Shown piece after piece: positions 1-30,770 of a DNA stretch of 32,000 bases. The DNA comes from Halomicrobium mukohataei DSM 12286. Its GTDB lineage: Archaea > Halobacteriota > Halobacteria > Halobacteriales > Haloarculaceae. Position numbers and translations under genes: made by a program. The stretch lies in the NCBI RefSeq assembly GCF_000023965.1, contig NC_013201.1, positions 60,001 to 92,000 on the forward strand, read 5' to 3'. The notes beneath the pieces were generated by a model, which was not told where the DNA came from, made no database searches, and saw only the letters and a program-made list of their open reading frames with translations. The first letter of the stretch is position 1. Each line of letters begins with the position of its first letter.

Positions 1-400
1 CCAGCGTGATCGTCCGCTTCAACTCGCCTTTGACCTCGTCGAGGCCCCCGATGTCGTCCCACGTGACCTCCGTCTGGGAGATGAACGATTCGACTTGCTC
101 ACGAAAGTCCGACTCCGGCTGTTCGGCGTCCTCTGCCCCGCCGTCGCGGTTCTCGCCGATGTCCTCTTCGGAGAGGGCCTCGCCGCTCTTTAGCTTCGAG
201 ATCGACGACTCCAGTTGCTCTTTGCGGTCCGGATACGTCGTTTCCCGGATCGTTTCGAGCTCTTCCAACCGATCGAGAGACTGTGAGAACGCTTTCGCGG
301 CCTTCTCGTGGTTCTCCTGATCGAGGTGTGACTTCCCCTTCTTGAGGTACTCTTCGTACTGTTCCTGTAGGATGTCCTCTTTGTACTGTCCGAGATCCAT
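1..400 (-). CDS. MIT-domain AAA+ ATPase, Vps4/CdvC-like (N-terminal ~133 aa; gene continues beyond window start)
   Basis: My own reverse-strand translation from the ATG at 400-398 gives MDLGQYKEDILQEQYEEYLKKGKSHLDQENHEKAAKAFSQSLDRLEELETIRETTYPDRKEQLESSISKLKSG (helical, MIT-like). This is followed by an acidic linker and then ...QTEVTWDDIGGLDEVKGELKRTITL, the conserved segment that precedes Walker A in Vps4/katanin/spastin-type AAA proteins. It is absent from the ORF track because there is no stop codon inside the window. Confidence 0.7.
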   Translation of the reverse strand, partial: MDLGQYKEDILQEQYEEYLKKGKSHLDQENHEKAAKAFSQSLDRLEELETIRETTYPDRKEQLESSISKLKSGEALSEEDIGENRDGGAEDAEQPESDFREQVESFISQTEVTWDDIGGLDEVKGELKRTITL

Positions 401-436: not shown

Positions 437-1057
437 TTAGCGGCCCAGCTCCTCGTTGAAGATGTTCTCACTCTCGTCTTCTTCTTTCGTGAGCTCGCTC
501 AGCGAGACCGGGTCCTCGTTGGCGTCCTGGAACAGCGTGTCGATCTCCGACTCCTCCATCGTCGCCCCGAAGTCCTGCGAGACGCTGGTGAGGGTCCGGT
601 TGAGCTGATCGCCCTTGCGCTGGATCCACTCCGTGTCCTTGTTGCGCTTCTCGATCTCGCGGACGATGTCGTTCATGAACTCCTGTACGTCTTCCTCGCT
701 CATGTCCCGGAGCGACGACTGGGGCTGCTCTTCGAGCCGCTTCTTGGCGTTTTTGGCAGCCAGCAGGGTGGTGTACTCTTCCAGCATCTCCTGCCACGCG
801 GCTTCCTTGTTCTCGTAGTCCCGCTTGAGCTGCTTGGCCTTTCGCTTCAGTCGCTCTTTTTTAGGTCCGGCGACCTTTCGCCCCTTCTCGACCAGTTGCT
901 CGAACTGGTGATCGAGCCGTTCGAGCTCCTGTTCTTTCAGCTCGATCTGCGTCTCGAAGGTTCGTGCTTCGAGGTCGAGTTCGTCGGCGTCTTTCTCCAT
1001 GAGTTCGTTCGAACTGCCGCCCCAGCTACCTGGTATCCAGTCTCTGAACTGAACCAT
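437..1057 (-). CDS. ESCRT-III/Snf7-like coiled-coil protein (206 aa with preferred start)
   Basis: ORF track 437..1081 (-). I prefer the third in-frame ATG (1057). A TATA-like box (TTTTATTA on the coding strand, 1081-1088) lies ~25 nt upstream, and this start gives MVQFRDWIPGSWGG..., parallel to the N-termini of the paralogues at 1137..1805 and 10266..10940. The N-terminal half is basic and helical (KGRKVAGPKKERLKRKAKQLKRDYENKE). The C-tail is acidic and ends EEDESENIFNEELGR. The fold call is by pattern only. Confidence 0.6.
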   Translation of the reverse strand: MVQFRDWIPGSWGGSSNELMEKDADELDLEARTFETQIELKEQELERLDHQFEQLVEKGRKVAGPKKERLKRKAKQLKRDYENKEAAWQEMLEEYTTLLAAKNAKKRLEEQPQSSLRDMSEEDVQEFMNDIVREIEKRNKDTEWIQRKGDQLNRTLTSVSQDFGATMEESEIDTLFQDANEDPVSLSELTKEEDESENIFNEELGR

Positions 1058-1115
1058 ATACGAGTACATGGTAGGCACCATAATAAAACTTTGGCACTAA
1101 ACCCACTCTACTGGA

Positions 1116-1130
1116 TCTCCATATTGGAGA
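1116..1130. promoter_or_regulatory. Palindromic motif TCTCCA-TAT-TGGAGA, copy 1 of 3
   Basis: Perfect 6+3+6 palindrome read directly from the sequence. It lies 27 nt upstream of the TATA-like box of the 437..1057 gene. The same motif occurs at 20381..20395 and 27339..27353. Confidence 0.55.
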
Positions 1131-1136: not shown

Positions 1137-1805
1137 CTACGAAAACTCGACGGTCTCGTCGTCGCCGTCTTCGCTCAGTACGTCGGATTCCGTTTCGATG
1201 TTCCCCACCTCTGTGGGCTCTTCGCTCACTTCTTCGTCGGTCTCGGATGTGTCGTCGCTCCACTCCTCTTCGAGTTCGGAGCCGGTGTGGAGCTGGCTCG
1301 CGCCCTCACTGAACGAGTCCAGTGCGTTCGAAGAGAGCGTATCCGTCTGACCGAGCACGTCGTGTAGCTCCTCGTTTTTCATCTCCTCTTGCTGGAACAG
1401 TCGGACCAGTTCGCTCTGGTCCATCTCCCGGAGCTGGCTCCAGTAGTCGTCGCCCCGGCTCTCGCCGATCTCCTTGATGTTCGCCAGGTTCGAGGCCAGA
1501 TTCCGCTGTTTGCTCGTCTCGTCGATCCGCCCTCTTACGGTTTCGAGCTCTTCTTTGATCTCTTCTGCGTCGCGAAGGAAGTCCTGTGCTCGCTCTTCGT
1601 TACCGGCTTCCTTCGCCGACTCGTACTTCGAGCGCTTGTCATCGAGCGCTTCTTTCAGCTCCTCTCGGCGACTCTTGAGATCGTCTAGCTTCCGTTCGGC
1701 TTCCTGTCGCTTGACCTGATGGTCCTCCTTCGGACGATCGAGCAGGTGGCCGTCGTCACTGTCGCCAAACAGTGAGCCGAACCACGACTTCACGGTAGCA
1801 AACAT
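1137..1805 (-). CDS. ESCRT-III/Snf7-like coiled-coil protein (222 aa)
   Basis: ORF track. The N-terminus is MFATVKSWFGSLFGDS. A heptad-rich segment (...KYESAKEAGNEERAQDFLRDAEEIKEELETVRGRIDE...) resembles the Snf7/CHMP helical hairpin. The C-terminal third is very acidic. An ATTTAT box (1831-1836, coding strand) lies 25 nt upstream of the ATG, consistent with a leaderless mRNA. Confidence 0.6.
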   Translation of the reverse strand: MFATVKSWFGSLFGDSDDGHLLDRPKEDHQVKRQEAERKLDDLKSRREELKEALDDKRSKYESAKEAGNEERAQDFLRDAEEIKEELETVRGRIDETSKQRNLASNLANIKEIGESRGDDYWSQLREMDQSELVRLFQQEEMKNEELHDVLGQTDTLSSNALDSFSEGASQLHTGSELEEEWSDDTSETDEEVSEEPTEVGNIETESDVLSEDGDDETVEFS

Positions 1806-1994: not shown

Positions 1995-2576
1995 TCACCG
2001 AGTGACGACTTCGATCGTTCTCTCGATCACCGCCCGGTAGAACGGCCCCGGATCGTTCTCCCGGAGTCGCGCAGTGAACGGTTCGATCCACGCTCGCGGG
2101 TGTTCGTCGAGGAACTGCTCGACCGTGTCGTCGTCCTCGGTGGCGGCGAGGTAGGCGGCGAATTCGAGCTCCGTCGCGATGTGGTCCGGCGGTGCCGATC
2201 TCGAGTCCCGCAACGCCAGTCCGTACTCGGCGTACCAGCGCGCAACCGCCTGTGTCGCCGGCCCGTACACCGGACCGACGTTCTGGCCGTCGCCGTCGTG
2301 GTCGCCGTCCCGATAGACGCTCTCGTAGGGCGGGCACTGTTCGGGGCCGGGGCCGATGAACAGTCGCGTGTACTCTACGCGCAGGTCGTCCAGATCGACG
2401 GCTGCCTCGCTCTCGTCGAGCCACGCGACTGCGCCCGACTCGACGGTACCACGCAACTCCTCGGACGGCTCGCGCCAGCACACTGCCAGGGTAGCGAGGG
2501 TGTCGGCCGTCGGCCGTCTCGTCTCCTCCGTCGCGTCGTCGACCGCCGTCGCGGTGTCGTCAGTCACACCCACCAC
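1995..2576 (-). CDS. dmsD: TorD/DmsD-family redox-enzyme maturation chaperone
   Basis: 193 aa. Carries the family signatures YTRLFIGPGP...PPYESVY...PDHIATELEFAAYL. It is the last gene of the molybdoenzyme operon and overlaps the end of the membrane-anchor gene. Confidence 0.85.
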   Translation of the reverse strand: MVGVTDDTATAVDDATEETRRPTADTLATLAVCWREPSEELRGTVESGAVAWLDESEAAVDLDDLRVEYTRLFIGPGPEQCPPYESVYRDGDHDGDGQNVGPVYGPATQAVARWYAEYGLALRDSRSAPPDHIATELEFAAYLAATEDDDTVEQFLDEHPRAWIEPFTARLRENDPGPFYRAVIERTIEVVTR

Positions 2577-3888
2577 CTCCGCCGTCTGCCGGGTATCTCT
2601 CCTGTTCGGTCCGCCGCTGGAGCGGGACGTATCGGAGCCCGACGGTGACGATCAGTGCGCCGAACGCGACGATTCCCGCGGTCACCACCAACTCGATCAC
2701 CGTCGGCGTGTACACCCCCGTCGTGGCCCAGACGTCCGTCGTGACGCCCGCGTACTCGCCGCCCAGCGAGATGCCCGGCGCGGCGTCGATGTTCACACTC
2801 TCGTAGCCGGTGAACACCAGTCGAACCCCTTCGAACAGGGTGCCGAACACGGCGAGTACGCCCGCGACGAATATCACGGACAGTCGCTTCCTGAGTTGCG
2901 GTGTCGCCAACAGCACCAGCGGTATTGCCCCGCCGACGCCGGTCCAGAGCCAGAAGTAGACCGAGTCCCCGATGAGGAACTCGCTGGTGATCGCCCAGAA
3001 GCCGAAGTGGTCTGCCCAGGCGTGTGGCAGGCGCTCGGCAGCGAGGAGGTAGACGACGTGAAACGCCAGGAAGATCCCCAGCATCTTCCCCAGACTCGTC
3101 AGCTCGTCCCGGTCGGCGTCGAAGCCCGTGTAGCGGTCGGCGAGTATCGAGACCACGAGCAGGAGGCCCAGGCCGGAGACGAGCGCTTTGGCGATGAACA
3201 CCGGTGCAACGAGCGGGCTGAACCAGTCGCCGCGGCCGACCTGTGTCGCGAAGATCCAGCCGGTCACGGAGTGGAGCATCACCGCCGTCGGCAATGCGAC
3301 CGCGGCCGTCCAGAACAGCAGCGTCCGGTCCCGATCCCGGCCGGCCTGTGTGTCTTCGGCTCCGAAGGCCAGTCGCGATCCGCGGGCAGCGAGGTCTCGC
3401 CGAGTGAGCAGCCAGAGGTACCAGACGTTCAACACGCCGTACAGGACGACGATCCCGAAGTCCCAGACCATCGGCGAACGAAAGTCCGGCGACGTGAAGA
3501 ACTGGTACAGCCGCTCTGGCCGACCGATATCGGGCAGGATGAGCAGTCCTGCGACGATGATGCAGGCCAGACTCACGAGGACGCCGAGCCGTGCGAACCC
3601 CTCGTACCGGTCCGAGTGGAAGAACTTCGGCGCGCTCGAGATGATGAGCCCGCCCGCAGACAGCCCGACGAACATCACGAACAGCATGATGTACAGCCCC
3701 CAAGAGAACACGTTCCGCATCCCGGTCACGACCAGACCCTGCTGGAGCTGGTACGCCCACGCCCCGAGTCCGGCGACCAGGAGCACACCCAGGAGGCCGA
3801 GCCAGACCTTCGAAACGGTCCCGAACGAGGACACCACGGGGCTCCGCACTGTCGACGTCGCCGATCTCTCGGTCACTTCACCACTCAT
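2560..3888 (-). CDS. dmsC: NrfD/PsrC-type integral membrane anchor subunit of a molybdoenzyme
   Basis: 442 aa with many hydrophobic helices throughout. ATGA start/stop overlap with the upstream FeS-subunit gene. Its operon position matches the anchor subunit. Confidence 0.85.
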   Translation of the reverse strand: MSGEVTERSATSTVRSPVVSSFGTVSKVWLGLLGVLLVAGLGAWAYQLQQGLVVTGMRNVFSWGLYIMLFVMFVGLSAGGLIISSAPKFFHSDRYEGFARLGVLVSLACIIVAGLLILPDIGRPERLYQFFTSPDFRSPMVWDFGIVVLYGVLNVWYLWLLTRRDLAARGSRLAFGAEDTQAGRDRDRTLLFWTAAVALPTAVMLHSVTGWIFATQVGRGDWFSPLVAPVFIAKALVSGLGLLLVVSILADRYTGFDADRDELTSLGKMLGIFLAFHVVYLLAAERLPHAWADHFGFWAITSEFLIGDSVYFWLWTGVGGAIPLVLLATPQLRKRLSVIFVAGVLAVFGTLFEGVRLVFTGYESVNIDAAPGISLGGEYAGVTTDVWATTGVYTPTVIELVVTAGIVAFGALIVTVGLRYVPLQRRTEQERYPADGGGGGCD

Positions 3889-4661
3889 CAGTCATCACCC
3901 CACACTGCGTCGGCAGTAGCACGTCGCATCGATTCCTCGCTGTCGGGGTCGTCGGCCTCCTCGGGGGTCGGCTGTTCGTCGAGTTCCGATTCGAGTTCTT
4001 TGCCCTTCCAGGGCCGACCGGGTGACATCTCGCCCTGGATATAGTACGTTTTCGGATCGGTGTCCTTCTCGTCGAGCAGTCGGTTGGTATCGTATTCGGC
4101 GACGTACTTTGAGACGGTGCTCTCATCGTCGTCGAGGTCCCCGAAGATTCGGGCATCGGCAGGACAGTTTACGACACACGCGGGATCGAGTCCTTCCTCG
4201 ACGCGGTGGCTACAGAACGTACACTTCTCGACGACGCCCTGGGGCCGTTCCTCGACGTCACCAGTGCCCTCTTCGGGGCGGTGCTGTGGCTCGTCCCAGT
4301 TGAACACCCGAGCGTTGTAGGGACAGGCGGCCATGCAGTACCGGCAGCCGATGCACTTGTCGTAGTCGATCTCCACGATGCCGTCCTCGCGCTTGTACGT
4401 CGCGTTGACCGGACAGACCTTCACGCAGGGTGCGTTCTCGCAGTGCTGACAGGCCGTCGGCTGATAGCTCATCTCCAGCGTTCCGTCGTCTCCATCCTCT
4501 GGATACGAGCCTTCGGGTGTATCGATGTGATCGCCACCGACGGTCAGTACGCGATTCCAGGCCTGTCCCATCGGGACGTTATTCTCTTGCTTACAGCTCA
4601 TGGCACAGGAGTGGCAGCCGATGCAGCGCTCTTGATCGATTACGAGTCCATAATTTGTCAT
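3888..4661 (-). CDS. dmsB: 4Fe-4S ferredoxin-type electron-transfer subunit of a molybdoenzyme
   Basis: The ORF track entry 3888..4667 starts at TTG. The ATG at 4661 gives MTNYGLVIDQERCIGCHSCAMSCK... There are several CxxCxxCxxxC(P) clusters (CIGCHSCAMSC, CQHCENAPCVKVCP, CIGCRYCMAACP). Two nt separate it from the catalytic-subunit stop codon. Confidence 0.9.
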   Translation of the reverse strand: MTNYGLVIDQERCIGCHSCAMSCKQENNVPMGQAWNRVLTVGGDHIDTPEGSYPEDGDDGTLEMSYQPTACQHCENAPCVKVCPVNATYKREDGIVEIDYDKCIGCRYCMAACPYNARVFNWDEPQHRPEEGTGDVEERPQGVVEKCTFCSHRVEEGLDPACVVNCPADARIFGDLDDDESTVSKYVAEYDTNRLLDEKDTDPKTYYIQGEMSPGRPWKGKELESELDEQPTPEEADDPDSEESMRRATADAVWGDD

Positions 4662-4663
4662 TT

Positions 4664-7174
4664 TCAATCACCTCCGGCCGAGCTGCCAGCCGTACCGTGT
4701 GGATTGTCCTGCGTGTACTGGTTGGACTGGTACTCATCAGCTGCGGGTTCGACTTCTACTCTGCAATCGTAGAAGGCGAACGTGCGTCCGACTTTTGCAG
4801 TCTCCGCGGAGATCGGGTCCTGGTAGTGCCCTTCAACGAAGTCCTCGGCCCACCATCCCTGGTCCGTGTTCACAAGTCCAGGACGAATCCCCTTGTTGTA
4901 CTTCGCACGGACAACCACCGAGCCACGGTCGTTGTGGACGCGCACGTAGTCTCCATCCGAAATCCCTCTGCGCTTGGCATCTTTCGGATGAATGTCCAAC
5001 TGTGGCTCCCGGTTGACCTCTCTGAGCCATGGGACATTGGCCCACTGGGAGTGGATCCGCCACTTCGAGTGTTTTTGCATGAACACCAGTGGGTACTCAT
5101 CTTGTTTCTCCCAGTCCTCGTCGGTTCTGGCTTCTAATGGTTCCGGAACTTCAAGCGAGACCCCCTCGTCGGGCAGTCCCGGCCCCTTCTCAGTTGGCGC
5201 GTCGTCGTCGTACACCGTGATCCGACCGGATTCCGTTCCAAACTCATCGGTGTACGCGACATCCGGGGTTTCGTCAGTGGCGACCGTTCCGGTCTCTTGA
5301 AGTTGTTCCCAGGAGAGGCGGTCGTCGTTTTGTACGAACTGGTCGAGTACTTCGTGTTTGTCATCGGGGAATTTGTCTCCGTGGTCGAGTCGCTCGGCTA
5401 ACCCAGCTATGATGTAGTAGTCGTCACGGGCCTCCCAGAGTGGTTCGTGGGCCTGCTGCCGGTAACTGAGATTGGGGTGGGTGTACGTCGTGAGCAAGTC
5501 CTCAGTTTCGAACCAGTGAGCGGCCGGCAAGATAATATCCGCTTGCTGAGTCGTCGGCGTGTGGTACATGTCCGCCCACACGATGGTGTCGAGATTCTCC
5601 ATCGCGTTCAGCCAGCGGTCCCTATCCGGGAACTGGTTCCCGAGCATATTCGAGTTCATTCCGTAGAGGAACCTGGGTTGGGCGGGGCCGCCGTCCTCAA
5701 GCAGATCGAGGACGCGTTGGTACCCATACGTTTCGACACCGACCGCATCGTCTGGACTTCCCCAATCGCCTTTCTGAAGGTAAGAGCCGTTGTACGACGG
5801 GTGCTGTGCGTGGATGTTTCCGTGACGGCCGTAGTCGCCGGTCAGTGCCAGTAGCGTCGCGTAGGCCTGCCCAAACACGTGTCCGTACAGGTACCGGCCA
5901 ACACCGTAACTCGGCATAATTCCGCCTGCGCCACGAGTAGCTAACCAGTCGGCTGCCGTCTCGATGTCTTCAGCGGTCAGTCCGGCGATATCGGCTACCT
6001 TGTCCGGGGGATAGTTCGCGGCTTGTTCACGGAGCGCAACCAGGCCGGGTCGGACGGTCGTCCCATCGATGGACCACTCGCCCGTGAGCGCGAACGGACC
6101 ACCAGTTTCAGCGCCGACAACCTCTGGCTCGCCAGTTTCCTCGTTCATCACGACGACTGCGTCATCGGCAGGATCGTCGACGACCCGGCTTGGGTCAAGG
6201 AGTGTTCCGTCGTCAGTGCGGACGAGTGCTGGTGCGTTCGTCCGCTGCCGGAGGAAGGACTCGTCGTAAACCTCGTTCTCGAAGATGTAGTGCATCATCG
6301 AGAGAGCGAGGTGCGTGTCTTTTCCCGGGCGGATCGGTAACCAGAGGTCCGATTTCTCCGCCGTGTTCGTGTACATGGGGTCGACGACGACAAGCTTCGC
6401 GCCGTTGCGCTTGGCTTCGAGGACCCACTCGGCGTCCATCTGGAACTGACTCGCGAAGATGTCCGACCCCCAGATGATGATCGTCCTGGCGTTGACCCAG
6501 TCTTCAGCGGTATTCGTCGGTGGCATGAAGACGCCACCTTCGCCGGTGACTCGGTTGAAGCCCTGGCCGACGTTAGTGTCGATCCCGAAGACGAAGCTGT
6601 CCTGAATGCCACCAACCAGTTGTTTCAGGCGACCGAAGCCAGTCGTCCCACCGTCACCCGATCCGGAGTGCCAAAAAATGCCTTCCGTCCCGTGTTCGTC
6701 CTTGGTGGTCCGTATCTGTTCAGCCACTAGGTCAAGTGCCTCGTCCCAACTGATTCGCTTGAAGTCTGCGTCTTCACCACGCTTGTCGGGCTGGGGGGTA
6801 TCCGGCGACCAGCTGGCGCGTTTCATCGGGTACTTCAACCGCTTCGCGTTGTACACCCGCTGTAAGTGTGAAATGCCCAGCGTACAGCCACGCTTGAACT
6901 CAGTTGCAGCGGGCACCTGCTGCTCGACTTTCTTCACCTGCCCATCCCGAATGTAAACGTCCAGCGGACACTTCCCGCGGCAGTTCGGCGAACAGGCGGT
7001 CTTTACGACTTGATCTTCTCCGAGGAAGCTGGTGACCTGACTGGCAGCTTCTCCCGAGTCGTCGGCGGGCTGGAGCGTCGAGAGAACGCTGTCAGCGCCG
7101 CCGAGTCCGACTGCGGCGACGACACCGCTCTTCAGAACGTCCCGGCGGGACGCCGTGAACTCTTGGTCAGTCAT
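4664..7174 (-). CDS. dmsA: Molybdopterin oxidoreductase catalytic subunit, DMSO-reductase family, Tat-exported
   Basis: 836 aa. Twin-arginine signal TASRRDVLKSGVVAAVGLGGA. N-terminal Cys cluster CSPNCRGKC (Cx3Cx3C). The gene symbol is assigned by synteny with the Halobacterium dmsREABCD operon, recalled from the literature. The true substrate cannot be read from the sequence. Confidence 0.9.
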   Translation of the reverse strand: MTDQEFTASRRDVLKSGVVAAVGLGGADSVLSTLQPADDSGEAASQVTSFLGEDQVVKTACSPNCRGKCPLDVYIRDGQVKKVEQQVPAATEFKRGCTLGISHLQRVYNAKRLKYPMKRASWSPDTPQPDKRGEDADFKRISWDEALDLVAEQIRTTKDEHGTEGIFWHSGSGDGGTTGFGRLKQLVGGIQDSFVFGIDTNVGQGFNRVTGEGGVFMPPTNTAEDWVNARTIIIWGSDIFASQFQMDAEWVLEAKRNGAKLVVVDPMYTNTAEKSDLWLPIRPGKDTHLALSMMHYIFENEVYDESFLRQRTNAPALVRTDDGTLLDPSRVVDDPADDAVVVMNEETGEPEVVGAETGGPFALTGEWSIDGTTVRPGLVALREQAANYPPDKVADIAGLTAEDIETAADWLATRGAGGIMPSYGVGRYLYGHVFGQAYATLLALTGDYGRHGNIHAQHPSYNGSYLQKGDWGSPDDAVGVETYGYQRVLDLLEDGGPAQPRFLYGMNSNMLGNQFPDRDRWLNAMENLDTIVWADMYHTPTTQQADIILPAAHWFETEDLLTTYTHPNLSYRQQAHEPLWEARDDYYIIAGLAERLDHGDKFPDDKHEVLDQFVQNDDRLSWEQLQETGTVATDETPDVAYTDEFGTESGRITVYDDDAPTEKGPGLPDEGVSLEVPEPLEARTDEDWEKQDEYPLVFMQKHSKWRIHSQWANVPWLREVNREPQLDIHPKDAKRRGISDGDYVRVHNDRGSVVVRAKYNKGIRPGLVNTDQGWWAEDFVEGHYQDPISAETAKVGRTFAFYDCRVEVEPAADEYQSNQYTQDNPHGTAGSSAGGD

Positions 7175-7406
7175 CGAACCCCTCCGGTTTCGTAGGTCGT
7201 TCGTCGGTTCCGAACTCCGCTTTGACCTCCTCGTGGTACTTCTCGTGGAACTCCTGCTCGGTTAGCTCACCGTTCGTGATCTTGATGGCGTCTTCGGCCA
7301 TCCGCTTCCCGAGATCCGGATCGTATCCACACCCATCGAGGATCTCGTCGGCAACCTCGTCCCACTCTGGTATCGGCTCGTGGGCGGATCGAGATTCTTT
7401 TGTCAT
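7167..7406 (-). CDS. Small acidic protein in the dmsE position of the operon (79 aa)
   Basis: An internal ATG of track ORF 7167..7505 gives MTKESRSAHEPIPEWDEVADEILDGCGYDPDLGKRMAEDAIKITNGELTEQEFHEKYHEEVKAEF... The upstream extension is basic and non-halophilic in character. There is an 8-nt overlap (ATGACTGA) with dmsA. Confidence 0.6.
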   Translation of the reverse strand: MTKESRSAHEPIPEWDEVADEILDGCGYDPDLGKRMAEDAIKITNGELTEQEFHEKYHEEVKAEFGTDERPTKPEGFDD

Positions 7407-8205: not shown

Positions 8206-8260
8206 ATCCTATAAGTGTCTCTACAGCTAGCGTCGGTATACGAACCCGGCTGGTTCTCAC

Positions 8261-16754: not shown

Positions 16755-17474
16755 ATGATCTCGTACTGCCACAGCAACGTCGGTCAGCAGCGTTCCGAAA
16801 ACGAGGATGCGTCCCGCTGTGCGTCGCTCGACGACGGGCGGGAACTCGTCGTCGTCGCCGACGGCATGGGGGGCCACCCGAAGGGTGCCGAGGCGAGTGC
16901 AACGGCTGTCGAGCGACTGTTCGAAACGGTCACCTCGGAGACGCCCGAAGACGACGGGCCAGAGGCCGTGCTCGAACGCGGCTTCCGGGCCGCACACGAC
17001 GCCGTGACCGATCTCGCGGCGGGCGAGCGCAAGACGCCGGGGACGACGCTCGTCGCCGCACTCGTCGCGGACGACACCGCGACGATCGCCAACGTCGGAG
17101 ACAGCCGCGCCTACTACGTCGACGACGCACTCCGGCAGGTGACCACCGACCAATCGCAGGTCCAGGAACTCGTCGAGGCGGGCGAGATCACGCCCGAAGA
17201 GGCCACGAACCACCCGATGAGCCACGTGCTGTCCCAGGCGGTCGGGACCGCCGACGACCTCGACGTCGACCTGTACACGCAGTCGCTCTCGGAGGGGTGG
17301 CTCCTGCTCTGTACGGACGGGCTCACCGATCCCGTTCCGGAGGACACGATCGAGGCGACCTGTCTCGACGCCGCGTCGCTCGAATCCGCGGGGACGGCTC
17401 TGATCCGGGAAGCCAACGACCGAGGCGGACCGGACAACGTCACCGTCGGTCTCTGCCGGACCGAAACGGCGTAG
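16755..17474 (+). CDS. PP2C-family Ser/Thr protein phosphatase
   Basis: The ATG at 16755 lies inside track ORF 16617..17474. PP2C motifs are present: NEDA, VVVADGMGGH, ANVGDSRAY, LLLCTDGL, GGPDNVTV. Confidence 0.9.
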   Translation: MISYCHSNVGQQRSENEDASRCASLDDGRELVVVADGMGGHPKGAEASATAVERLFETVTSETPEDDGPEAVLERGFRAAHDAVTDLAAGERKTPGTTLVAALVADDTATIANVGDSRAYYVDDALRQVTTDQSQVQELVEAGEITPEEATNHPMSHVLSQAVGTADDLDVDLYTQSLSEGWLLLCTDGLTDPVPEDTIEATCLDAASLESAGTALIREANDRGGPDNVTVGLCRTETA

Positions 17475-17655: not shown

Positions 17656-19725
17656 TCAGTCGGCGACGAAACAGAGCCCGTCAGCGGCGGCGGGGTAGCC
17701 GGTCGTCCCGTAGCCGTCTTCGGCCAGCCGTTCGAAGGCGGCCCGCACGATGTGTGGGCCGAAGTCGTGTTCGTCGACGACCGCGTGGTGCTGGACGACT
17801 TCGGTCATCGGGTCGTCGACGTAGTCGTCGCGCAGGACCTCGATGCAGTCGGCGACGCGCTCGCTGTCCACCGCACGCGTGAACAGATCGACGTTCTCGG
17901 AGACGAGGCGGTCGTTTCGGTCGTAGATCAGCTCGTTGGACTGGATGTCGACCAGACAGACGCTCACCTGCTGGTCGAACCGGGACCGCGCGGCGTCCTC
18001 GTTCTGGACGAACGCTTCCACGTCGTCGGTCCAGCCGGTGGGTGAGGCGATGCCGATCAGGTGGGTCGTGTCGTTCGACTCGGCGCGGGCGACCGTCTCG
18101 TTGACGACATCGATGAGGTCGTCGATGCCCGCGGGCCGCGCGTCGAAGCCGTTCACGGCGAAGGCTTCGAGGTTGGCGGCGACGACGGCCTCGACGACCA
18201 GTTTCGTCTCCGAGAACGCGACGAACTTGTTCGTCCGCACGCGGTAGGTCGAGAACCGTCCGACCGGGTACCGATCGGCCGTGGTCTCGTCGTCCAGTAC
18301 GTCTGCGACGATCGATCGGTGGTCCCCGGTGAAGTGTCGGCGTCGATCCTCCCAGAACCCCTCCGGGATCTCGAAGCGATCGCCACCGGGGAGCGTCAGG
18401 TGGGTCGCCTCCTCGACGGAGGTCTCGAACCGCGTGACGTAGTCCATCTCGTACAGCCGCGCCACTTGCGCGCGGATCGCCTTCCCGTCGGGCTCCTCGC
18501 GCTGACTCCGGACGGACTCGGCGATCTCTCCGACGCGCTCGTCCAGCTCGTCGACTCGGTCGACCCGCTGTTCGGCCGTCGCGACCCGTTCTTCGAGGTC
18601 GCCGAACTCCCGGTCCAGTCGATCCCCGGTCGTCTCCAGGCGCTCGCGTTCGTTCCGTAACCGCTGGATTTCGGCGCTGAGATCGCCTTTCCGCTCCGAG
18701 AGGCGGTCGAGTTCGTCTTCGAGCAGCGACGCGGCTTTCGACGCGGCCTCGTCCTGTAGCTCCTGGCGGGTCTCCTCGCGGGCCGCCTCCAGCTGCTCGA
18801 TCTGTGCTTCGAGGTCGTCTTCCAGCGTCGAGATCGTGTCGAGTTTCTCCGAGATCTCTCGTCTGTCCGCGGAGCGTTGCTCCGAGAGGGTCGCGATCTG
18901 GTCTTTGATCTCGTCGAGCTCGCCTTCGACGGCGTCCGTGTCGACGCCGCCGGTCGCCATCTCCGACTGGAGTCGGCTCATCTCGGTCCGGAGGGATCGC
19001 TCTTGCTCCTGGAGGCTGTGGTGGACCGTCTCCGAGAGCGACTCCAGCTCGTCCCGTACCGTCGCTTCGATGGCCTCTCGCTCGGATTTCGCGTCCCGGG
19101 CCGCTTCCGCGGCACTGACGATACCCTCGATGGTGTTCGGGAGCCCGTGGTGTTTGATGTAGAGGAAGACGGCCTCGTCGGCCAGTTCGAAGAACTCCTC
19201 GAACTCCCGCTGGAAGTACGAGATCGTCGCGCCGCGGATCTCGTTTGACGACGTGTCCAGCAGCGACTCCCGGAGGTCGGCTTGCGCTTCGAGTTCCTCG
19301 GTGACGAACTGGTGGACCTTCCCGTCCTTGTTCTTGATGTTGGTCTCCAGGTTCTCCTCGTCGATCTGCTTGAACTTCCGGCGGAAGTCGTCGAACTGCC
19401 TGACGAACTCGCGTTCTCCCGCCTCGAACTGGTCGACGAACCCCTTCGACTCGGGCTCGCTCTCGCCTGCCTCCTCGATCGCCGTCGCCAGGAGCAGCTT
19501 CGCGGCCTCGAAGGAGGCCACCTCGTTCTCTTTGGTGGCCTCGGGGATCGACTCCCGGTGTTCGGGGTAGAAGTCCCACTCGTACACCTCTTTGTTCTGT
19601 TCGAGCTGGTTGTACAGGTCTCGTCGGCGCTGTGCCGAGTAGTTCGCTAGTTCGACCAGGTCCTTCTGCAAGACCTGGTGGGCCGGATACGTCAGCTCTT
19701 CGCGTTTGTCTTTGATCGTTCCCAT
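17656..19725 (-). CDS. Large coiled-coil protein of unknown function (689 aa) with globular C-terminal domain
   Basis: ORF track. It has an acidic, halophile-type composition and a long central heptad region (about residues 220-420). No Walker A motif was seen. The C-terminal ~200 aa contain ...FVAFSETKLVV... and ...THLIGIASPTGWTDDVEAFV..., reminiscent of a PD-(D/E)xK/Mrr-like core (weak, by eye). Confidence 0.8.
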   Translation of the reverse strand: MGTIKDKREELTYPAHQVLQKDLVELANYSAQRRRDLYNQLEQNKEVYEWDFYPEHRESIPEATKENEVASFEAAKLLLATAIEEAGESEPESKGFVDQFEAGEREFVRQFDDFRRKFKQIDEENLETNIKNKDGKVHQFVTEELEAQADLRESLLDTSSNEIRGATISYFQREFEEFFELADEAVFLYIKHHGLPNTIEGIVSAAEAARDAKSEREAIEATVRDELESLSETVHHSLQEQERSLRTEMSRLQSEMATGGVDTDAVEGELDEIKDQIATLSEQRSADRREISEKLDTISTLEDDLEAQIEQLEAAREETRQELQDEAASKAASLLEDELDRLSERKGDLSAEIQRLRNERERLETTGDRLDREFGDLEERVATAEQRVDRVDELDERVGEIAESVRSQREEPDGKAIRAQVARLYEMDYVTRFETSVEEATHLTLPGGDRFEIPEGFWEDRRRHFTGDHRSIVADVLDDETTADRYPVGRFSTYRVRTNKFVAFSETKLVVEAVVAANLEAFAVNGFDARPAGIDDLIDVVNETVARAESNDTTHLIGIASPTGWTDDVEAFVQNEDAARSRFDQQVSVCLVDIQSNELIYDRNDRLVSENVDLFTRAVDSERVADCIEVLRDDYVDDPMTEVVQHHAVVDEHDFGPHIVRAAFERLAEDGYGTTGYPAAADGLCFVAD

Positions 19726-19727: not shown

Positions 19728-20252
19728 TTAGGCAATCATGTACCCGATCTCCTCTTCGATGAATTCACGGAGAAACTCCGGTGCCTCTCCGAAACCGTCG
19801 ATGACGACGTGGAGTCGGACGGTGTTCTGTTCTCGTTCTCGGATGTCGTACTGGATCTCGGCTCGTCCCTTCTTCGTGTAGACGGCCCAGAGACTCTCGC
19901 CGTCGGTCGTCGACCCCTGGTCGACGGCCTTTCGCTTTTTCATGATCGATTCCATCGCCCACTCGACGCGTTCGGCCTCGACGTCGTCGAACGTCTCGTC
20001 GATCGTCGCCTGGACCTGCGTCGCCTCGGTGTCGACGCGGTTCAGTTCGTACGCCGACAGCTCCTCTTCTGGCACCTTCGCCGCCAGCTGGTCGTACAGC
20101 TCGTCGATGTCGACGTCTCTCACGACGCGGGACATGCCGTCGAGGGACTCGATCGTCCCGTCCTCCCAGTTGTCGAGCAGGTACTCCGCGCGCTTTCGCT
20201 CGCGCTCGTCTTCGTAGTCGACGACGACGAGGTACGCACCGTCCTCGCTCAT
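19728..20252 (-). CDS. Hypothetical acidic protein (174 aa), translationally coupled to the 689-aa gene
   Basis: An internal ATG of track ORF 19728..20453 gives MSEDGAYLVVVDYEDERERKRAEYLLDNWEDGTIESLDG... Its stop codon lies 2 nt before the ATG of the downstream gene. A TATA-like TTTATAG (20369-20375, coding strand) is upstream. Confidence 0.65.
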   Translation of the reverse strand: MSEDGAYLVVVDYEDERERKRAEYLLDNWEDGTIESLDGMSRVVRDVDIDELYDQLAAKVPEEELSAYELNRVDTEATQVQATIDETFDDVEAERVEWAMESIMKKRKAVDQGSTTDGESLWAVYTKKGRAEIQYDIREREQNTVRLHVVIDGFGEAPEFLREFIEEEIGYMIA

Positions 20253-20380
20253 CTCGGTGCTGCCCTCCACTGGTCTGGGTGCTCCGTCGCGACGCCGACC
20301 GGCGTCGACCGACTCGCACACCCCTTCGTCGCGTCTCTCATCTCTCTGGCACAACGTTCCACCTCCAACTATAAACAATT

Positions 20381-25758: not shown

Positions 25759-27225
25759 TTAGCGCTGTGCCCGGAGCTGGGACTGGAGGCGCTCGACGGT
25801 GCTGAACCGCTCCGCTGGCTGCTTTTCCAGCGCCTTCATCACGGCGTCGCTGACGGCCTGCGGGACGCGATCGTCGACCGCCGCCGGTGGCTCGGGCTCC
25901 TCGGTGAGGATCGCGTTCATCAGCGCGACGCCGTTGCCCTCGAAGGGCGGCCGGCCGGTCAGCACCTCGTACATGAGGACGCCGAGCTGGTAGATGTCCG
26001 TCTTGCTGCTGGGGTCGCCGAACTCGTCGGCGTCGAACTGCTCGGGGGCGGCGTAGGTCGGCGACATGCCCTCGACGGTCGGTTGGTGTTCCTTGAGCGT
26101 GCGTGCCAGCCCCCAGTCGGCGACCTTCGGTACGTCCCAGCTCCCCTCTCCGGTCCGGCGAAACAGGACGTTCTCGGGCTTGAGATCCAGGTGGAGGACG
26201 CCGGTCTGGTCGTGGCGGACTCCCTGCGCGATCCGTTCGCACGTCCAGACGGCCTGCTCGATGGAAAACTCCGAGAGCCGCTCGCGCAGCGTGCCGCCGT
26301 CCATGTACTCTATCGCGATCCAGGGCTTGGGCCGCGTCCCGCTGTCGACGACGCCGACGACGTGGTCTCGGGGCGACAGCAGCGACCACGTCTCCGCCTC
26401 CTGCTCGAAGCTCTCTACCACCGACGACGTGATCGTTCCCTCGAAGTTCGGTACCTTCAGCGCGACCGTCGTCGTCTCTCCGTTGACGCGGTACTGTGCC
26501 TCGTGGACGACGCCGCTGCCCCCGTGTCCGAGCTGCCCCTCGATCTCGAAGTCGGCGTACGCAAGCTCTTCTCGGGCCGGACTCTGAACGCTCGCCACGT
26601 CGGGCACCATCGAGGCCGTATCGACGTTCGTTGCGGTCGACGACTGCGTGTCGGCCGACGCCTCGGCGGCTGCCGTCGATTCGGTCTCCCCGGTGTTCTC
26701 GGCCGCCGATTCCGTCTCGGTCGCCGATTCCGTCTCGGCCGTCGACGCGGATTCGCTGCTCGCTTCGCCCGGCGACGAGTCGGCCGCCTGCCGTCCTTCC
26801 GTCTGTGCTGTTGCCCGGTCTGCTGTCCCTTTCGTCTGTCTCTCTCCTTCGAGGGCATCCGCTCCCGTCGCCTCGATCGACTGCCCCTCGTCCGAGCCGA
26901 AGGCGGCTGCACACGCCCGGAGTCCGGACTGAAGCTCCTCGACTCCGGCGTTCGCCGCTTCGATCGTCCCGACAACGTCACCGGTCGTCACCGCGCCCTC
27001 TGCGGTCGGCTCGATGAGGTTCTCCTCTTCCAGCACTCGCAGCGAGTATCGGAGCTCGTTGTGGGGGTGGTCCAGCACGTCGGCGAGATCGGTGATGCCC
27101 GCGGGCTCCCGTTCGAAGACGGTTCGGAGCACGGTCAGATTCCGCCCGGTGAGCTCGGCCTCGCTCTCGACCGTCTCGAACATCTCCGTGAGCGTCGGCG
27201 TCTCCTCCTCCTCGGAATCCGTCAT
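25759..27225 (-). CDS. Winged-helix (HTH) domain fused to Hanks-type Ser/Thr kinase (K3)
   Basis: An internal ATG of track ORF 25759..27345 gives MTDSEEEETPTLTEMFETVESEAELTGRNLTVLRTVFEREPAGITDLADVLDHPHNELRYSLRVLEEENLIEPT..., a wHTH-like domain. This is followed by an acidic T/E/S/A linker. Kinase motifs: LGHGGSGVV, VALKVP, HLDLKPENVLF, VADWGLA, YAAPEQ. A CTATTA box lies 25 nt upstream of the ATG. Confidence 0.85.
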   Translation of the reverse strand: MTDSEEEETPTLTEMFETVESEAELTGRNLTVLRTVFEREPAGITDLADVLDHPHNELRYSLRVLEEENLIEPTAEGAVTTGDVVGTIEAANAGVEELQSGLRACAAAFGSDEGQSIEATGADALEGERQTKGTADRATAQTEGRQAADSSPGEASSESASTAETESATETESAAENTGETESTAAAEASADTQSSTATNVDTASMVPDVASVQSPAREELAYADFEIEGQLGHGGSGVVHEAQYRVNGETTTVALKVPNFEGTITSSVVESFEQEAETWSLLSPRDHVVGVVDSGTRPKPWIAIEYMDGGTLRERLSEFSIEQAVWTCERIAQGVRHDQTGVLHLDLKPENVLFRRTGEGSWDVPKVADWGLARTLKEHQPTVEGMSPTYAAPEQFDADEFGDPSSKTDIYQLGVLMYEVLTGRPPFEGNGVALMNAILTEEPEPPAAVDDRVPQAVSDAVMKALEKQPAERFSTVERLQSQLRAQR

Positions 27226-27408: not shown

Positions 27409-27714
27409 ATGTACTGGGAGCGATCCAACATGGCACTATCACTGTGGACGCTGGCGCTGGCACTGCTCGTCAACCTCGTACTCGGTGCGGTCCTCGTACT
27501 GGGCGTGTTCACGCTGATGGAGCAGCGCATCCTGCTGGGGGCCATCGCGGGGCTGGTCATCGGCGGCATCGTCGTCTACGCAGAGGCGACCGTCGGCGCA
27601 CAGCTGTTCTCGCTGACGTTCGAAGAGAAGCGACTGATCGTCGTCCTGGCGGGCATCGGCGCGGCGCTGGGAATCTCGGGGACGATGCTGACCATCGAAC
27701 CGGAGATCAACTGA
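27409..27714 (+). CDS. Small membrane protein (101 aa, about three TM helices)
   Basis: ATG at 27409, inside track ORF 27388..27714 and ~24 nt downstream of TTTAT. The sequence is MYWERSNMALSLWTLALALLVNLVLGAVLVLGVFTL...GIVVYAEAT...VVLAGIGAALGISG... Confidence 0.6.
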   Translation: MYWERSNMALSLWTLALALLVNLVLGAVLVLGVFTLMEQRILLGAIAGLVIGGIVVYAEATVGAQLFSLTFEEKRLIVVLAGIGAALGISGTMLTIEPEIN

Positions 27715-27878: not shown

Positions 27879-30770
27879 ATGATTGTCGATGCACTGCAAC
27901 GGGCGTCTCGTCTCCGATCCAAAGCCGACTCCGAGCGCCACACCGTCGCTACAGACGAGATCGAGGAACTCACTGCACTGCTGGAGTATCGCCGACCGAC
28001 GGCTCCAGCGTCGCCCGCGGAATCGGCCGAGGCTCCTCTGGACGACGGGGACGTTCGCGCCGGGGCGGCTCTGGCACTTGCGGCCGTCGCTCGGGACCGA
28101 CCGGACGCCGTCGTTCCTGCCGTGGATGGTCTCAGACAGTGTCTCACCGACACCCATCCGGGTTTGCGTGGGAACGCCGCTCTCGCACTCGCTGCGGTCG
28201 CCGAGGCACGTCCCGAGGAGATCCGACCGGCGGTTCCCGGCCTCCGGACGCTCCTTTCCGAGGCGCGTACCGAGACACGCGCCACCGTGACGCCAGCGGA
28301 GTATCCCGAATCGATCCGGCCGCTGGTCGCGGAGCTCCGGTCGCTGCGAAACGACGAGCGTGACACGGCGCGTGCCGCCGGTGCCATCGCGCTCAAAAAC
28401 GTCGCGAGAGCCGCTCCCGGATCGGTCGTCACCGCCGTCGACGCTCTTCTGACACTCCTCGACGAGGAGAAAGCCGCGACGCGCACCGCGGCCGTCGAGG
28501 CGCTGAAAAACGTCGCCAGCGAACGACCGGCTGCGATCGAACCGGCCGTCGACGACCTGCAGACCTCACTCGACGACGACGACCGGCGCGTACGCGAAGC
28601 GGCCGAACGGACGCTTGCGATGCTCGACGGTGCGTCCACAGAGAGCGCCGCCGTCGAAGACGCCGGTCGGACCGAGCCGAACCGACAGCACCAACGAACC
28701 ACGACTATGGACTCTGCTCACCAACCGGATCTCGACGAGGGAGAAGAGACGCCGTCGATGTCGCTCGACCCGTCCGCACTGCGCCACGACGACGTCATCG
28801 GCCGCACCGCGACGACGGTCGTGCATCGGGTCCGTCACCCCGGCGAGGACGGGCCGGACGGCATCGCCGTGAAACACCCCGCTCGACACGGGACGCTGAC
28901 CGAGGAGACCATCGACGGGTTCGATCACGAGGCCCGGCAGTGGGCCGGCCTCGACGACCACCCGAACGTCGTCTCGGTGATCGACTGGGGGTACGACCCG
29001 CTCCCCTGGCTCCGCGGCGATGCGTCGGTACCCTGGATCGCCACGGAGGTCGTCGACGGACCGGACCTTCGCGCCGTCGCCGAGGACGCGACGGTCGAGC
29101 AGTCGCTCTGGACCGCACAGCGACTCGTCGACGCGGTCTGGCACGCCCACCACCGCGGCGTCGTCCACCTCGACCTGAAGCCGTCGAACGTCCTGTTTGC
29201 CCCCGGCGAGCGGTGGCCGATTCCGAAGGTCGCCGACTGGGAGCTCTCCCGCTCGCTGCTGGGCCAGGGGGCCGCCGTCGGCATCTCGACGCCCGGCTAC
29301 TGTGCGCCCGAACAGGACGGCCAGGGCACGACGGACCAGCGGACCGACCAGTTCCAGCTCGCGATCGTCCTCTACGAGCTGTTCACCGGGACGCATCCGT
29401 TCGTCGACGACCTCGCCGCCACCCCACAGCGAGAGCGCATCGAGCGCGTCCTCGACGCCGATCACAGGTCGCCCAGCGAGCGCCGTCCGGAGTTGCCGGC
29501 CGCTCTCGACGACGTGTTCGAGCGCGCACTGGCGCGGGACCCGGCCGATCGGTACGAGGCGACGATCGACCTCCGTCGCGCCCTGGAGCGGATCGCCGAG
29601 GAGTGGGAGTCGACGCCGGACGACCCGCAGAGCGCGACCGAGCCCGCGACGGCAGACCGCGACCCCACCCCGACGACCGACCACTCCGCGCCGGAACCGA
29701 CGAGTACGGACCGCTCGCGGCCGACGGCCGACGACCGCGACTGGCCGACCCTCCACGGGAGCGCGTCGCGCTCCGGCCCTCGACAGCGTGCGGTCGGCCC
29801 CTCGCCACCCGTCACCGAACGCTGGACGTTCCAGGCGGGCGATTCGATCAGGGGCGGCCCGACCGTCGTCGACGACACGCTGTACGTCGGGAGCGACGAT
29901 GCGGCCGTCTACGCACTGGCGACGGAGTCCGGTGCGACGCGGTGGACCTACGAGACCGACGATCCGGTCCAGTCGCCGGCGACCGTCGTCGACGGGACGG
30001 TGTACGTCGGCAGCCACGACAAGCGCGTGTACGCGCTGGACGCCGAGACCGGAGCCGAGCGGTGGGTGGCCGAAACGGACGGGATGGTCGACGCTGCGCC
30101 CGCGGTGGTCGACGGGACGGTGTACGTCGGCAGCTACGACAAGCACGTGTACGCGCTGGACGCCGCGACCGGGGCCGAGCGGTGGGTCGTCGAGACCGAC
30201 GGCAAGACCGGCGCGGTCCCCACCGTCGTCGACGGGACGGTGTACGCCTCCTGTGGAACCGGCGTCCTCGCCGCGCTGGACGCCGACTCCGGCGAGCGCC
30301 TGTGGCGCTACCCCACCGGTGGACCGGCGATGTCGACGCCAGCGGTCTCTGACGGCGTCCTCTACGCGGGCACCAACGACGGGCGCGTCGTGGCACTCGA
30401 CGCCGACACGGGCACCGAGCGCTGGACGTTCGACGCCGGTGGGAACGGCCGGTCGGCACCGGCGATCTGCGGTGACACCGTGTACGCGGGCAGCATCGAC
30501 GGCTACGTTCTCGCGATCGACGCGGACAGCGGCACCGAACGCTGGCGCTACGACACGGCGGGACAGATCAACGGTGCGCCGGTCGCCGCCGACGACACGC
30601 TCCTGGTCGGGAGCTGGGACGAGTGTCTGTACGCGCTGGACGCCGCGACCGGCGACGAGCGGTGGCACTACCGGACCGGCAGTCTCATCGACGGATCGCC
30701 GGCAGTGGCAGACGGGACGGCGTACGTCGCCACGCACGACGGCGTCGTGTCCGCGCTCGGCGAGGAGTGA
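27879..30770 (+). CDS. HEAT repeats + kinase-like domain + 8-blade PQQ-type beta-propeller (K4)
   Basis: 963 aa. N-terminal HEAT repeats (LRGNAALALAAV, ARAAGAIALKNV, TRTAAVEALKNV, VREAAERTLAML). Kinase core: IAVKHP, HLDLKPSNVLF, YCAPEQ, but a degenerate Gly loop (IGRTATTVV) and DWE in place of DFG/DWG. Eight repeats of the ...G(T)VYVGS.D..VYALDA.TG.ERW type follow. Confidence 0.9.
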   Translation: MIVDALQRASRLRSKADSERHTVATDEIEELTALLEYRRPTAPASPAESAEAPLDDGDVRAGAALALAAVARDRPDAVVPAVDGLRQCLTDTHPGLRGNAALALAAVAEARPEEIRPAVPGLRTLLSEARTETRATVTPAEYPESIRPLVAELRSLRNDERDTARAAGAIALKNVARAAPGSVVTAVDALLTLLDEEKAATRTAAVEALKNVASERPAAIEPAVDDLQTSLDDDDRRVREAAERTLAMLDGASTESAAVEDAGRTEPNRQHQRTTTMDSAHQPDLDEGEETPSMSLDPSALRHDDVIGRTATTVVHRVRHPGEDGPDGIAVKHPARHGTLTEETIDGFDHEARQWAGLDDHPNVVSVIDWGYDPLPWLRGDASVPWIATEVVDGPDLRAVAEDATVEQSLWTAQRLVDAVWHAHHRGVVHLDLKPSNVLFAPGERWPIPKVADWELSRSLLGQGAAVGISTPGYCAPEQDGQGTTDQRTDQFQLAIVLYELFTGTHPFVDDLAATPQRERIERVLDADHRSPSERRPELPAALDDVFERALARDPADRYEATIDLRRALERIAEEWESTPDDPQSATEPATADRDPTPTTDHSAPEPTSTDRSRPTADDRDWPTLHGSASRSGPRQRAVGPSPPVTERWTFQAGDSIRGGPTVVDDTLYVGSDDAAVYALATESGATRWTYETDDPVQSPATVVDGTVYVGSHDKRVYALDAETGAERWVAETDGMVDAAPAVVDGTVYVGSYDKHVYALDAATGAERWVVETDGKTGAVPTVVDGTVYASCGTGVLAALDADSGERLWRYPTGGPAMSTPAVSDGVLYAGTNDGRVVALDADTGTERWTFDAGGNGRSAPAICGDTVYAGSIDGYVLAIDADSGTERWRYDTAGQINGAPVAADDTLLVGSWDECLYALDAATGDERWHYRTGSLIDGSPAVADGTAYVATHDGVVSALGEE
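29985..30224 (+). repeat. Two tandem 120-bp units (adjacent propeller blades) with near-identical first ~85 nt
   Basis: Comparing lines 30001-30060 and 30121-30180 gives 4 mismatches in 60 nt. Other blades are far more divergent at the DNA level. Confidence 0.7.

Follow-up and report, generated by a model that had tools for sequence, protein, structure and literature searches.

A conserved palindrome in promoters of the Halo_FHA ESCRT system of Halomicrobium mukohataei is a predicted operator of a shared transcription factor

Does a short palindrome that recurs at three promoters of one plasmid locus of Halomicrobium mukohataei DSM 12286 place the genes behind these promoters under a common regulator, and which genes would that regulator control? 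The stretch of DNA that was analysed, hereafter the window, is 32,000 nt long; it corresponds to positions 60001-92000 of plasmid pHmuk01 (NC_013201.1) and matches NZ_CP039376.1 85420-117419 at 100% identity. A pattern scan with TCTCCANNNTGGAGA allowing at most one mismatch gave exactly three matches in the window: site 1 at 1116-1130 (TCTCCATATTGGAGA, no mismatch; TCTCCAATATGGAGA in the orientation of the gene), site 2 at 20381-20395 (TCTCCATATTGGACA, one mismatch; TGTCCAATATGGAGA in the orientation of the gene) and site 3 at 27339-27353 (TCTCCACTTTGGAGA, no mismatch). All three copies named in a preliminary description of this DNA were thus recovered, and their location between genes was borne out. 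The same description had held that the copies are not due to chance; in agreement with this, 100 dinucleotide-preserving shuffles of the window gave a mean of 0.08 matches and a maximum of 1, compared to 3 observed. Its TATA offsets were also correct. The 27 nt given for site 1 lead to TTTTAT, in a BRE/TATA-like element with a predicted promoter role (GCCAAAGTTTTATTAT, 1080-1095, minus strand) whose GCCAAA starts 20 nt downstream of the palindrome. At site 3, the 29 nt lead to TTTAT in a second putative element of this kind (GCCAAATCTTTATGT, 27375-27389, plus strand), with 21 nt to GCCAAA, and at site 2, 5 nt separate the palindrome from the predicted TATA box TTTATA (20370-20375, minus strand). 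The flanks of the three copies have no similarity to one another.

The genes of the locus form a known system. The pHmuk01 locus of strain DSM 12286 is listed as a 'Halo_FHA' ESCRT system by Makarova et al. 2024 (PMC10936438), with Vps4, two ESCRT-III genes, the FHA/CdvA-like arCOG13166, arCOG08177 and arCOG09748 as components, and with S/T kinases and a PP2C phosphatase given as neighbouring genes. At the level of genes, a connection of the ESCRT-III module with the coiled-coil operon had thus been published before; that study treats proteins only and makes no mention of promoters or transcription (PMC10936438). As listed in the tables of that study, the locus has the combination by which Halo_FHA systems are recognised, namely Vps4, ESCRT-III and arCOG13166, often together with arCOG08177, arCOG09748, a kinase and PP2C; gene identities in the window were established from Pfam and by comparison with the literature. 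Among 11 lineages carrying related loci, genes of the FHA family were found in 9 and Vps4 in all 11.

Site 1 is located upstream of an ESCRT-III/Snf7-family gene (437..1057, minus strand; WP_012807436, arCOG07402 according to Table S2 of PMC10936438) and of Vps4. The ESCRT-III gene has a conserved start, MVQFRDW, at 1057, and its ORF is extendable to 1081. Vps4 (WP_012807435), identified by tblastn, annotation and PMC10936438, continues beyond the left end of the window, which holds its first 133 codons (2..400, minus strand). The site directly follows the stop codon of a second ESCRT-III/Snf7-family gene (1137..1805, minus strand; WP_012807437, arCOG07402), upstream of which no motif was found. 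With about 27 nt between the GCCAAAGTTTTATTAT element and the ATG at 1057, the predicted transcript of the first ESCRT-III gene would be leaderless.

Site 2 abuts the TATA box of the arCOG08177/arCOG09748 operon. The arCOG08177 protein (19728..20252, minus strand; WP_012807457, 174 aa) consists of a ferredoxin/Cas2-like domain and a helix-grip domain, and arCOG09748 (17656..19725, minus strand; WP_012807456, 689 aa) is a coiled-coil protein that ends in a winged helix. The operon is preceded by a conserved, predicted upstream ORF of 30 codons (20249..20341, minus strand) at a leaderless position, whose stop overlaps the arCOG08177 ATG (ATGA) and whose frame is kept in the related loci L003, L004 and L007, also across a 3-nt indel. 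The PP2C phosphatase gene (16755..17474, plus strand; WP_012807455) is a conserved neighbour of arCOG09748, and no motif was found upstream of it. Site 3 is located in the divergent region between K3 (25759..27225, minus strand; WP_012807462, arCOG01345), a CggR/MarR-like winged helix fused to a Hanks kinase and one of five Hanks kinases in the window, and the gene of a small protein with three transmembrane segments (27409..27714, plus strand; WP_012807463, 101 aa), which is the first gene downstream of the site and for which the RefSeq start in strain JP60 is at 27430. K4 (27879..30770, plus strand), which combines HEAT repeats, a Hanks kinase and a PQQ beta-propeller, and after it K5 lie beyond the small membrane-protein gene, across a gap of 165 nt in which no motif was found; K4 may be co-transcribed with the small membrane-protein gene.

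The preliminary description had proposed that the motif be sought beyond the window, and we scanned the complete 221,861-bp H. mukohataei plasmid. Over the entire 222 kb of this plasmid, only five sites with at most one mismatch were present. Perfect copies are limited to sites 1 and 3, and just two one-mismatch matches were found besides site 2, one within a CDS and one upstream of proC. With the degenerate consensus, 6 matches were obtained compared to 1.9 expected, half of them being the sites of the window. In the absence of further copies on the plasmid, the motif is not a dispersed repeat; the hallmarks of such a repeat or of a MITE (many copies, common extended flanks, any gene context) did not describe its distribution there. 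The plasmid scan also found no motif upstream of the many other Hanks-kinase genes, and the palindrome is therefore not a general feature of kinase genes. An extra motif-like site upstream of an HTH_20 gene of the plasmid is a weak lead, the degenerate pattern being expected 1.9 times by chance.

Relatives of the locus were gathered via protein homologs and their contigs, the genome-contig scan giving one relative and the metagenome scan seven. Conservation upstream of orthologous genes, suggested earlier as a check, was found: 12 further loci carry the palindrome, with a fixed promoter geometry, in their orthologous promoters, and protein identity falls as low as 35-42% among them. When 13 non-redundant loci (257 kb) were pooled, 20 sites with at most one mismatch were counted compared to 0.75 expected, and all 20 are intergenic and located in promoter regions of ESCRT-system genes.

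The sites have the consensus T-C-T-C-C-A-W3-T-G-G-A-G-A with the invariant core TCC-N5-GGA. Over 21 unique 15-mers, T3, C4, C5, G11, G12 and A13 do not vary and T1 and A15 hardly do so; positions 2/14 and 6/10 are variable and the centre is A/T-rich. Two promoter geometries were observed. In class I, which includes sites 1 and 3, the motif is followed by 20-21 nt of unconserved sequence and then by GCCAAAnTTTTAT; this arrangement was found at operons led by ESCRT-III or by the small membrane-protein gene. In class II, which includes site 2, the motif is followed after 4-5 nt by the TATA box; this arrangement was found at the arCOG08177 operon and, in some lineages, also at the small membrane-protein gene and at Vps4. 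With TATA boxes assigned from sequence only, the length of the spacer (20-21 or 4-5 nt) is kept across all lineages while its sequence diverges. Relative to the predicted promoters, the centre of class I sites is at about -65 and that of class II sites at about -43, which places class I about 22 bp, or about two helical turns, further upstream. In some relatives, a site is located downstream of the TATA box. The palindrome thus combines two properties of operators, being an over-represented inverted repeat and lying between genes at a fixed distance from BRE/TATA.

Each of the three sites of the window has counterparts in relatives. Site 1 has kept its place in IBSBa, H. katesii, LC1Hm, L003, L007, L008, L009, L014 and L019, always 20 nt from the GCCAAAGTTTTATTAT element, which hardly varies in 9 of 10 aligned orthologous promoters, while the flanks diverge until they are unalignable. 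The only relative without site 1 is L006, whose ESCRT-III gene is not preceded by the motif; in L008 and L029, only versions of it that deviate at two to three positions are present, those of L029 being the symmetric TTTCCA...TGGAAA. The geometry of site 2 is identical in LC1Hm, L003, L004, L007, L019, L026, L027, L029 and L030, and in the first four of these the palindrome adjoins TTTATAG. For site 3, homologous promoters were found in L026, L027 and L030, and related class II sites in L009 and L019. All three sites are kept in LC1Hm (~91% nucleotide identity), site 3 being identical. At the other end of the range, 9.3 kb of L019 (35% ESCRT-III identity, low G+C) contain 4 sites, which precede ESCRT-III, Vps4, the small membrane-protein gene and the arCOG08177 operon. 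In L026, L027 and L030 (42-46% arCOG08177 identity), a divergent promoter separates the genes of the small membrane protein, ESCRT-III and Vps4 from arCOG08177 and arCOG09748, and one copy of the motif is present on each side of it. The gene units are adjacent in L003 and L007 and ~16 kb apart in Halomicrobium, where the motif is retained. The regulon therefore appears to outlast genome rearrangement, and the motif behaves as a phylogenetic footprint, kept in orthologous promoters with diverging flanks.

Combined, these results argue that the palindrome is a cis-regulatory operator, the predicted binding site of one dimeric sequence-specific transcription factor that would coordinate the units of the Halo_FHA ESCRT system; we put the probability of this reading at about 0.8. 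Its symmetry could alternatively be that of a nucleic-acid hairpin, either an RNA stem-loop acting in termination, processing or stability or a DNA cruciform. The 6-bp stem and 3-nt loop fold at -6.5 to -9.8 kcal/mol in 30-nt contexts, site 1 lies directly after the stop codon of the upstream ESCRT-III gene, and one variant, TATCCATATTGGATA, has changed symmetrically. However, pair 2/14 is unpaired in 8 of the 21 unique sites and no covariation was detected, as every covariation measure was equalled by 37 to 125 of 500 shuffles. The motif is not followed by a T-run, class II sites are upstream of the TATA box and hence untranscribed from that promoter, and a fixed spacing to the TATA box is a property of the DNA; a search of Rfam gave no family at gathering score. 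An intrinsic terminator or other hairpin, rejected on the negative covariation test and the missing T-run, is highly improbable. Taken with the position of class II sites and the Rfam result, these findings led us to regard the symmetry as that of a dimeric protein site. It is also scarcely credible that the copies are functionless, being remnants of a mobile or dispersed repeat or alike merely by recent common descent. Further small insertions are indeed present in the region, and at the ~90% nucleotide identity found among close relatives part of the conservation is uninformative, but the window copies share no flanks, the plasmid-wide scan revealed no family of copies, and motif and spacing persist where flanks are unalignable and proteins are just 35-46% identical.

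As an operator, the palindrome would be read by a dimer contacting TCC-N5-GGA on one face of the DNA, with half-site centres ~9 bp apart. With about two helical turns between the centres of class I and class II, the protein would sit on the same side of the helix, seen from the pre-initiation complex, in either class. A spacer of fixed length and free sequence is what is expected of a protein positioned relative to TBP, TFB and RNA polymerase. In archaeal promoters, a site adjoining the BRE on its upstream side typically belongs to an activator, and one on the downstream side of the TATA box to a repressor. By this analogy, we lean, by little more than an even chance, towards activation at class I and class II sites, because upstream sites abutting the BRE are the typical position of archaeal activators, and towards repression at the site downstream of the TATA box; the factor would then be a dual-function regulator activating the main units. 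The neighbouring kinases, PP2C phosphatase and FHA protein make control of the putative regulator by phosphorylation an attractive idea.

Three units would be coordinated by the factor: ESCRT-III together with Vps4; the short upstream ORF with arCOG08177 and arCOG09748; and the conserved small membrane protein. A single dimeric factor acting on three units had been put forward in the preliminary description, and the promoter copies are indeed non-random; the conserved geometry and the pooled count (20 compared to 0.75) strongly favour the shared protein operator on which that proposal depends. Its third unit, composed of the small membrane protein, K4 and K5, has to be redrawn: the small membrane-protein gene is conserved and its promoter at site 3 is shared with relatives, but the kinases do not define the unit, other kinase genes of the plasmid lacking the motif. 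Homologs of the small protein were found in L009, L019, L026, L027 and L030. In the last three loci, its gene is the first of an operon continuing with ESCRT-III and Vps4, and the promoter in front of it (motif, 21 nt, gccaaaattttatgtgtctg) is recognisably the same as at site 3; the GCCAAATCTTTATGT element of site 3 is the same element as in L026 (gccaaaattttatgtgtctg) and L030. Since the gene heads an ESCRT-III/Vps4 operon elsewhere behind a promoter of the site 3 type, the third unit is an ESCRT component and not a 'kinase array', and the small protein is, as predicted from these comparisons, a conserved and uncatalogued component of the ESCRT system. In Halomicrobium, its gene would have been split from ESCRT-III and Vps4 and now precedes kinase genes.

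Which protein binds the operator was considered from the genes of the loci. The preliminary description had singled out the winged helix fused to K3. As the binder, K3 would connect phospho-signalling with ESCRT-regulon transcription in a single component. Its gene points away from site 3, in the divergent orientation, and its N-terminal 115 residues are confidently modelled (pLDDT 88) as a winged helix flanked by long helices, for which the top Foldseek matches are the DNA-binding domain of CggR on its operator and MarR-family repressors. A PDB profile search also matched SorC/CggR and ArsR proteins, the protein is assigned to arCOG01345, 'predicted transcriptional regulator', and the family of the N-terminal domain includes standalone winged-helix homologs of ~100 aa. 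A DNA-binding fold is thus probable from the model, but the domain does not co-occur with the motif across lineages: among motif-bearing loci it was found only in H. mukohataei and LC1Hm, and the motif is present without it in complete clusters of 13-20 kb, such as those of L003, L007, L026 and L030. Among the entries listed of the published ESCRT neighbourhood table, arCOG01345 has at least one, the one listed being K3 itself, and arCOG02795 at least two, all peripheral; neither family recurs consistently as a regulator there. As the domain is confined to Halomicrobium, K3 is not the conserved binder; a universal role was rejected on these phyletic grounds despite the DNA-binding-like fold, the proposal that K3 binds the palindrome is unlikely, and K3 is at most an extra or captured candidate binder specific to the Halomicrobium lineage. 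A further possibility is that a protein of the ESCRT module binds the operator and regulates its own synthesis, the candidates being the FHA/CdvA-like protein, arCOG08177 and, through its C-terminal winged helix, arCOG09748. The operator accompanies the arCOG08177/arCOG09748 operon over very distant lineages, including a remnant in a methanogen, and the loci have no conventional transcription factor gene in common: when all ORFs of the 11 lineages were clustered, the families common to the loci were Vps4, the FHA/CdvA-like protein, two ESCRT-III families, arCOG08177, arCOG09748, kinases and PP2C, and no shared helix-turn-helix regulator was found. However, the many invariant basic residues of arCOG08177, suggestive of binding, are set in a ferredoxin-like and helix-grip model whose structural neighbours (START, Bet v1, ACT, KA1) are not DNA-binding folds, which suggests binding of a ligand or a membrane rather than of DNA. 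The winged helix of arCOG09748 has an acidic, poorly basic putative recognition helix and is missing from the Methanomethylovorans hollandica remnant, in which palindromes are present, and it is an unlikely binder. The published analysis takes these domains as protein-protein adaptors (PMC10936438). Autoregulation by a module protein is, overall, very unlikely.

The predicted operator has counterparts among known archaeal regulatory sites. Upstream activating sequences abutting the BRE include the GvpE UAS of Halobacterium gas-vesicle promoters and the Ptr2 sites of Methanocaldococcus. Like class II sites, these are symmetric and directly upstream of BRE/TATA, and they are common to several promoters of one functional gene cluster. 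They differ in that sequence and regulon are unrelated, that activation by the present sites is proposed by analogy, and that here a second fixed position is used ~22 bp further upstream and some relatives have a site downstream of the TATA box. In Sulfolobales, the promoters of ESCRT/Cdv genes (cdvA) carry the aCcr1-box, bound by the ribbon-helix-helix factor aCcr1 (PMC9976878). The likeness lies in a short palindromic box at equivalent positions in ESCRT/Cdv gene promoters across an archaeal order, and in a dedicated regulator that binds and controls the machinery; binding was experimentally shown for aCcr1 (PMC9976878), whereas the regulator of the present sites is putative. The palindrome is not an aCcr1-box, from which it differs in sequence (15-bp TCTCCA-N3-TGGAGA compared to 9-bp A(T/G)G(A)TA(G)A(T/G)TACN) and in position, and the two occur in different phyla, with Cdv cell division in one case and an ESCRT system of the Halo_FHA type in the other. 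The N-terminal domain of K3 resembles SorC/CggR and MarR-type repressors (PDB 8r3g, 7oyk, 1lnw) in profile and predicted fold, and these are dimeric winged helices that read repeat operators; in K3 the domain is fused to a Hanks kinase and not to a sugar-binding or ligand domain, and outside Halomicrobium the domain and the motif were not found together. A search of the literature for the motif returned nothing relevant. For the locus described in PMC10936438, the gene system is known; the operator, its two promoter geometries, the small membrane protein and the upstream ORF are undescribed there and are new. The operator defines a new regulon of a familiar kind and not a new class of element.

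Haloarchaea divide with FtsZ, and to our knowledge their ESCRT-like systems are known from comparative genomics alone. A conserved operator offers a first experimental handle on these systems and makes their regulation directly testable. The defined 15-mer can be used as bait for the regulator, by DNA-affinity purification or EMSA, scans with a position weight matrix could delimit the regulon and hence the components of the system, and reporter promoters could show when the system switches on. Through the motif, the list of parts has already grown by a short upstream ORF and a conserved small membrane protein.

The motif was also looked for in other archaea and in viral contigs. In a complete Main-type operon on a plasmid of Thermococcus peptonophilus, only a half-site was found at the corresponding position, which is not significant, and a scan of viral contigs for the class I architecture gave two chance matches in low-GC contigs without ESCRT genes. 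Plasmid pMETHO01 of M. hollandica encodes an arCOG08177 homolog with 24% identity, with an N-terminal piece of arCOG09748 behind it; the surrounding 18.5-kb stretch has no annotated Vps4. The 550-nt region upstream of this homolog contains two palindromes, CCTCCATTTTGGAGG and CCTCCATTTAGGAGG, the latter 5 nt from TTTTATTT and hence in class II geometry. The chance expectation for this locus is 0.14, and two palindromes were reached in 1 of 200 shuffles. There is a hint here, from a single methanogen locus, of an old operator that moves together with the arCOG08177 operon. A bolder reading, which we hold to be rather unlikely, is that the operator has been inherited with the arCOG08177/arCOG09748 operon from Halobacteria to the Methanosarcinales remnant, and that the euryarchaeal ESCRT module has a sequence-specific regulator of its own, either within it or in tight coupling to it. 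The regulator would be a moonlighting protein of the module or a small winged helix of the arCOG01345 type, which in Halomicrobium would have been fused to a Hanks kinase as K3. Either form would amount to a direct circuit from phospho-signalling to transcription controlling membrane remodelling.

The operon behind site 2 of the TCTCCA-N3-TGGAGA palindrome (20381-20395), which carries arCOG08177 and arCOG09748, is preceded by an upstream ORF of 30 codons (MRDATKGCASRSTPVGVATEHPDQWRAAPR, 20249-20341, minus strand). This ORF begins about 29 nt past the site-2 TATA box, a leaderless position relative to that box, and its end overlaps the start codon of the arCOG08177 gene in an ATGA configuration. 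The reading frame survives a 3-nt indel and is kept in the related motif-bearing loci L003, L004 and L007. In Halomicrobium, this operon and the ESCRT-III/Vps4 unit behind site 1 are split by ~16 kb of unrelated genes (1995-16750), including a Mo-oxidoreductase/NrfD/DmsR-like operon and metal and redox genes; L003 and L007, both metagenomic relatives, have the two units side by side.

Downstream of site 3 (27339-27353) lies a gene for a small three-helix transmembrane protein (27409-27714, plus strand), which is conserved in loci of the Halo_FHA type of ESCRT system and is the first gene of the ESCRT-III/Vps4 operon in the related loci L026, L027 and L030. No arCOG assignment for this protein is present in the portion of the published table consulted (PMC10936438). 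Site 3 is flanked by a 15-nt direct repeat, GTGTCTGGTGCCCGT; the second copy (27388-27402) spans the region in which the small gene is predicted to start and is partially retained in the related strain LC1Hm and in L026, and the first copy (27267-27281) is not conserved.

Relative to the LC1Hm plasmid, a 210-aa ESCRT-III-like paralog is interrupted in the window by a 77-bp imperfect palindromic insertion (20967-21043), and just upstream of it lies a 197-bp insertion (21228-21424) similar to DNA that in many haloarchaea adjoins transposase genes; the window has also lost a second, 205-aa paralog. A third ESCRT-III paralog, WP_012807446 (10266-10940, plus strand), sits inside a low-GC island at 10001-11000 (45% versus about 65% GC), and the motif was not found upstream of it. 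A low-GC halophile, for example the organism behind the related locus L019, may have been its donor.

To the left of the window, at 6635-8767 of the plasmid stretch L020, the relatives IBSBa and L007 carry at the corresponding position an intact kinase + winged-helix + Fer2 gene adjoining the FHA gene. The PLSDB gene table, which is incomplete and leaves out pseudogenes, shows there for H. mukohataei and LC1Hm just a C-terminal 'ferredoxin Fer' gene; the gene may be a pseudogene here.

Motif-like palindromes also occur outside the window. One, TTTCCGAGCTGGAAA (NZ_CP039376.1:193764-193778, or 18764-18778 of stretch L024), ends 43 nt before the start codon of an ArsR-like HTH_20 gene, WP_012807528, that forms a pair with a DUF7521 membrane protein. 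Chance may account for this palindrome, since 1.9 matches to the degenerate pattern are expected on the plasmid. In a methanogen, Methanomethylovorans hollandica, two CCTCCA-N3-(T/A)GGAGG palindromes on pMETHO01 (L034, 8665-8679 and 8945-8959) both precede a remnant arCOG08177 gene and an arCOG09748 fragment, and the second abuts a TATA box as at window site 2.
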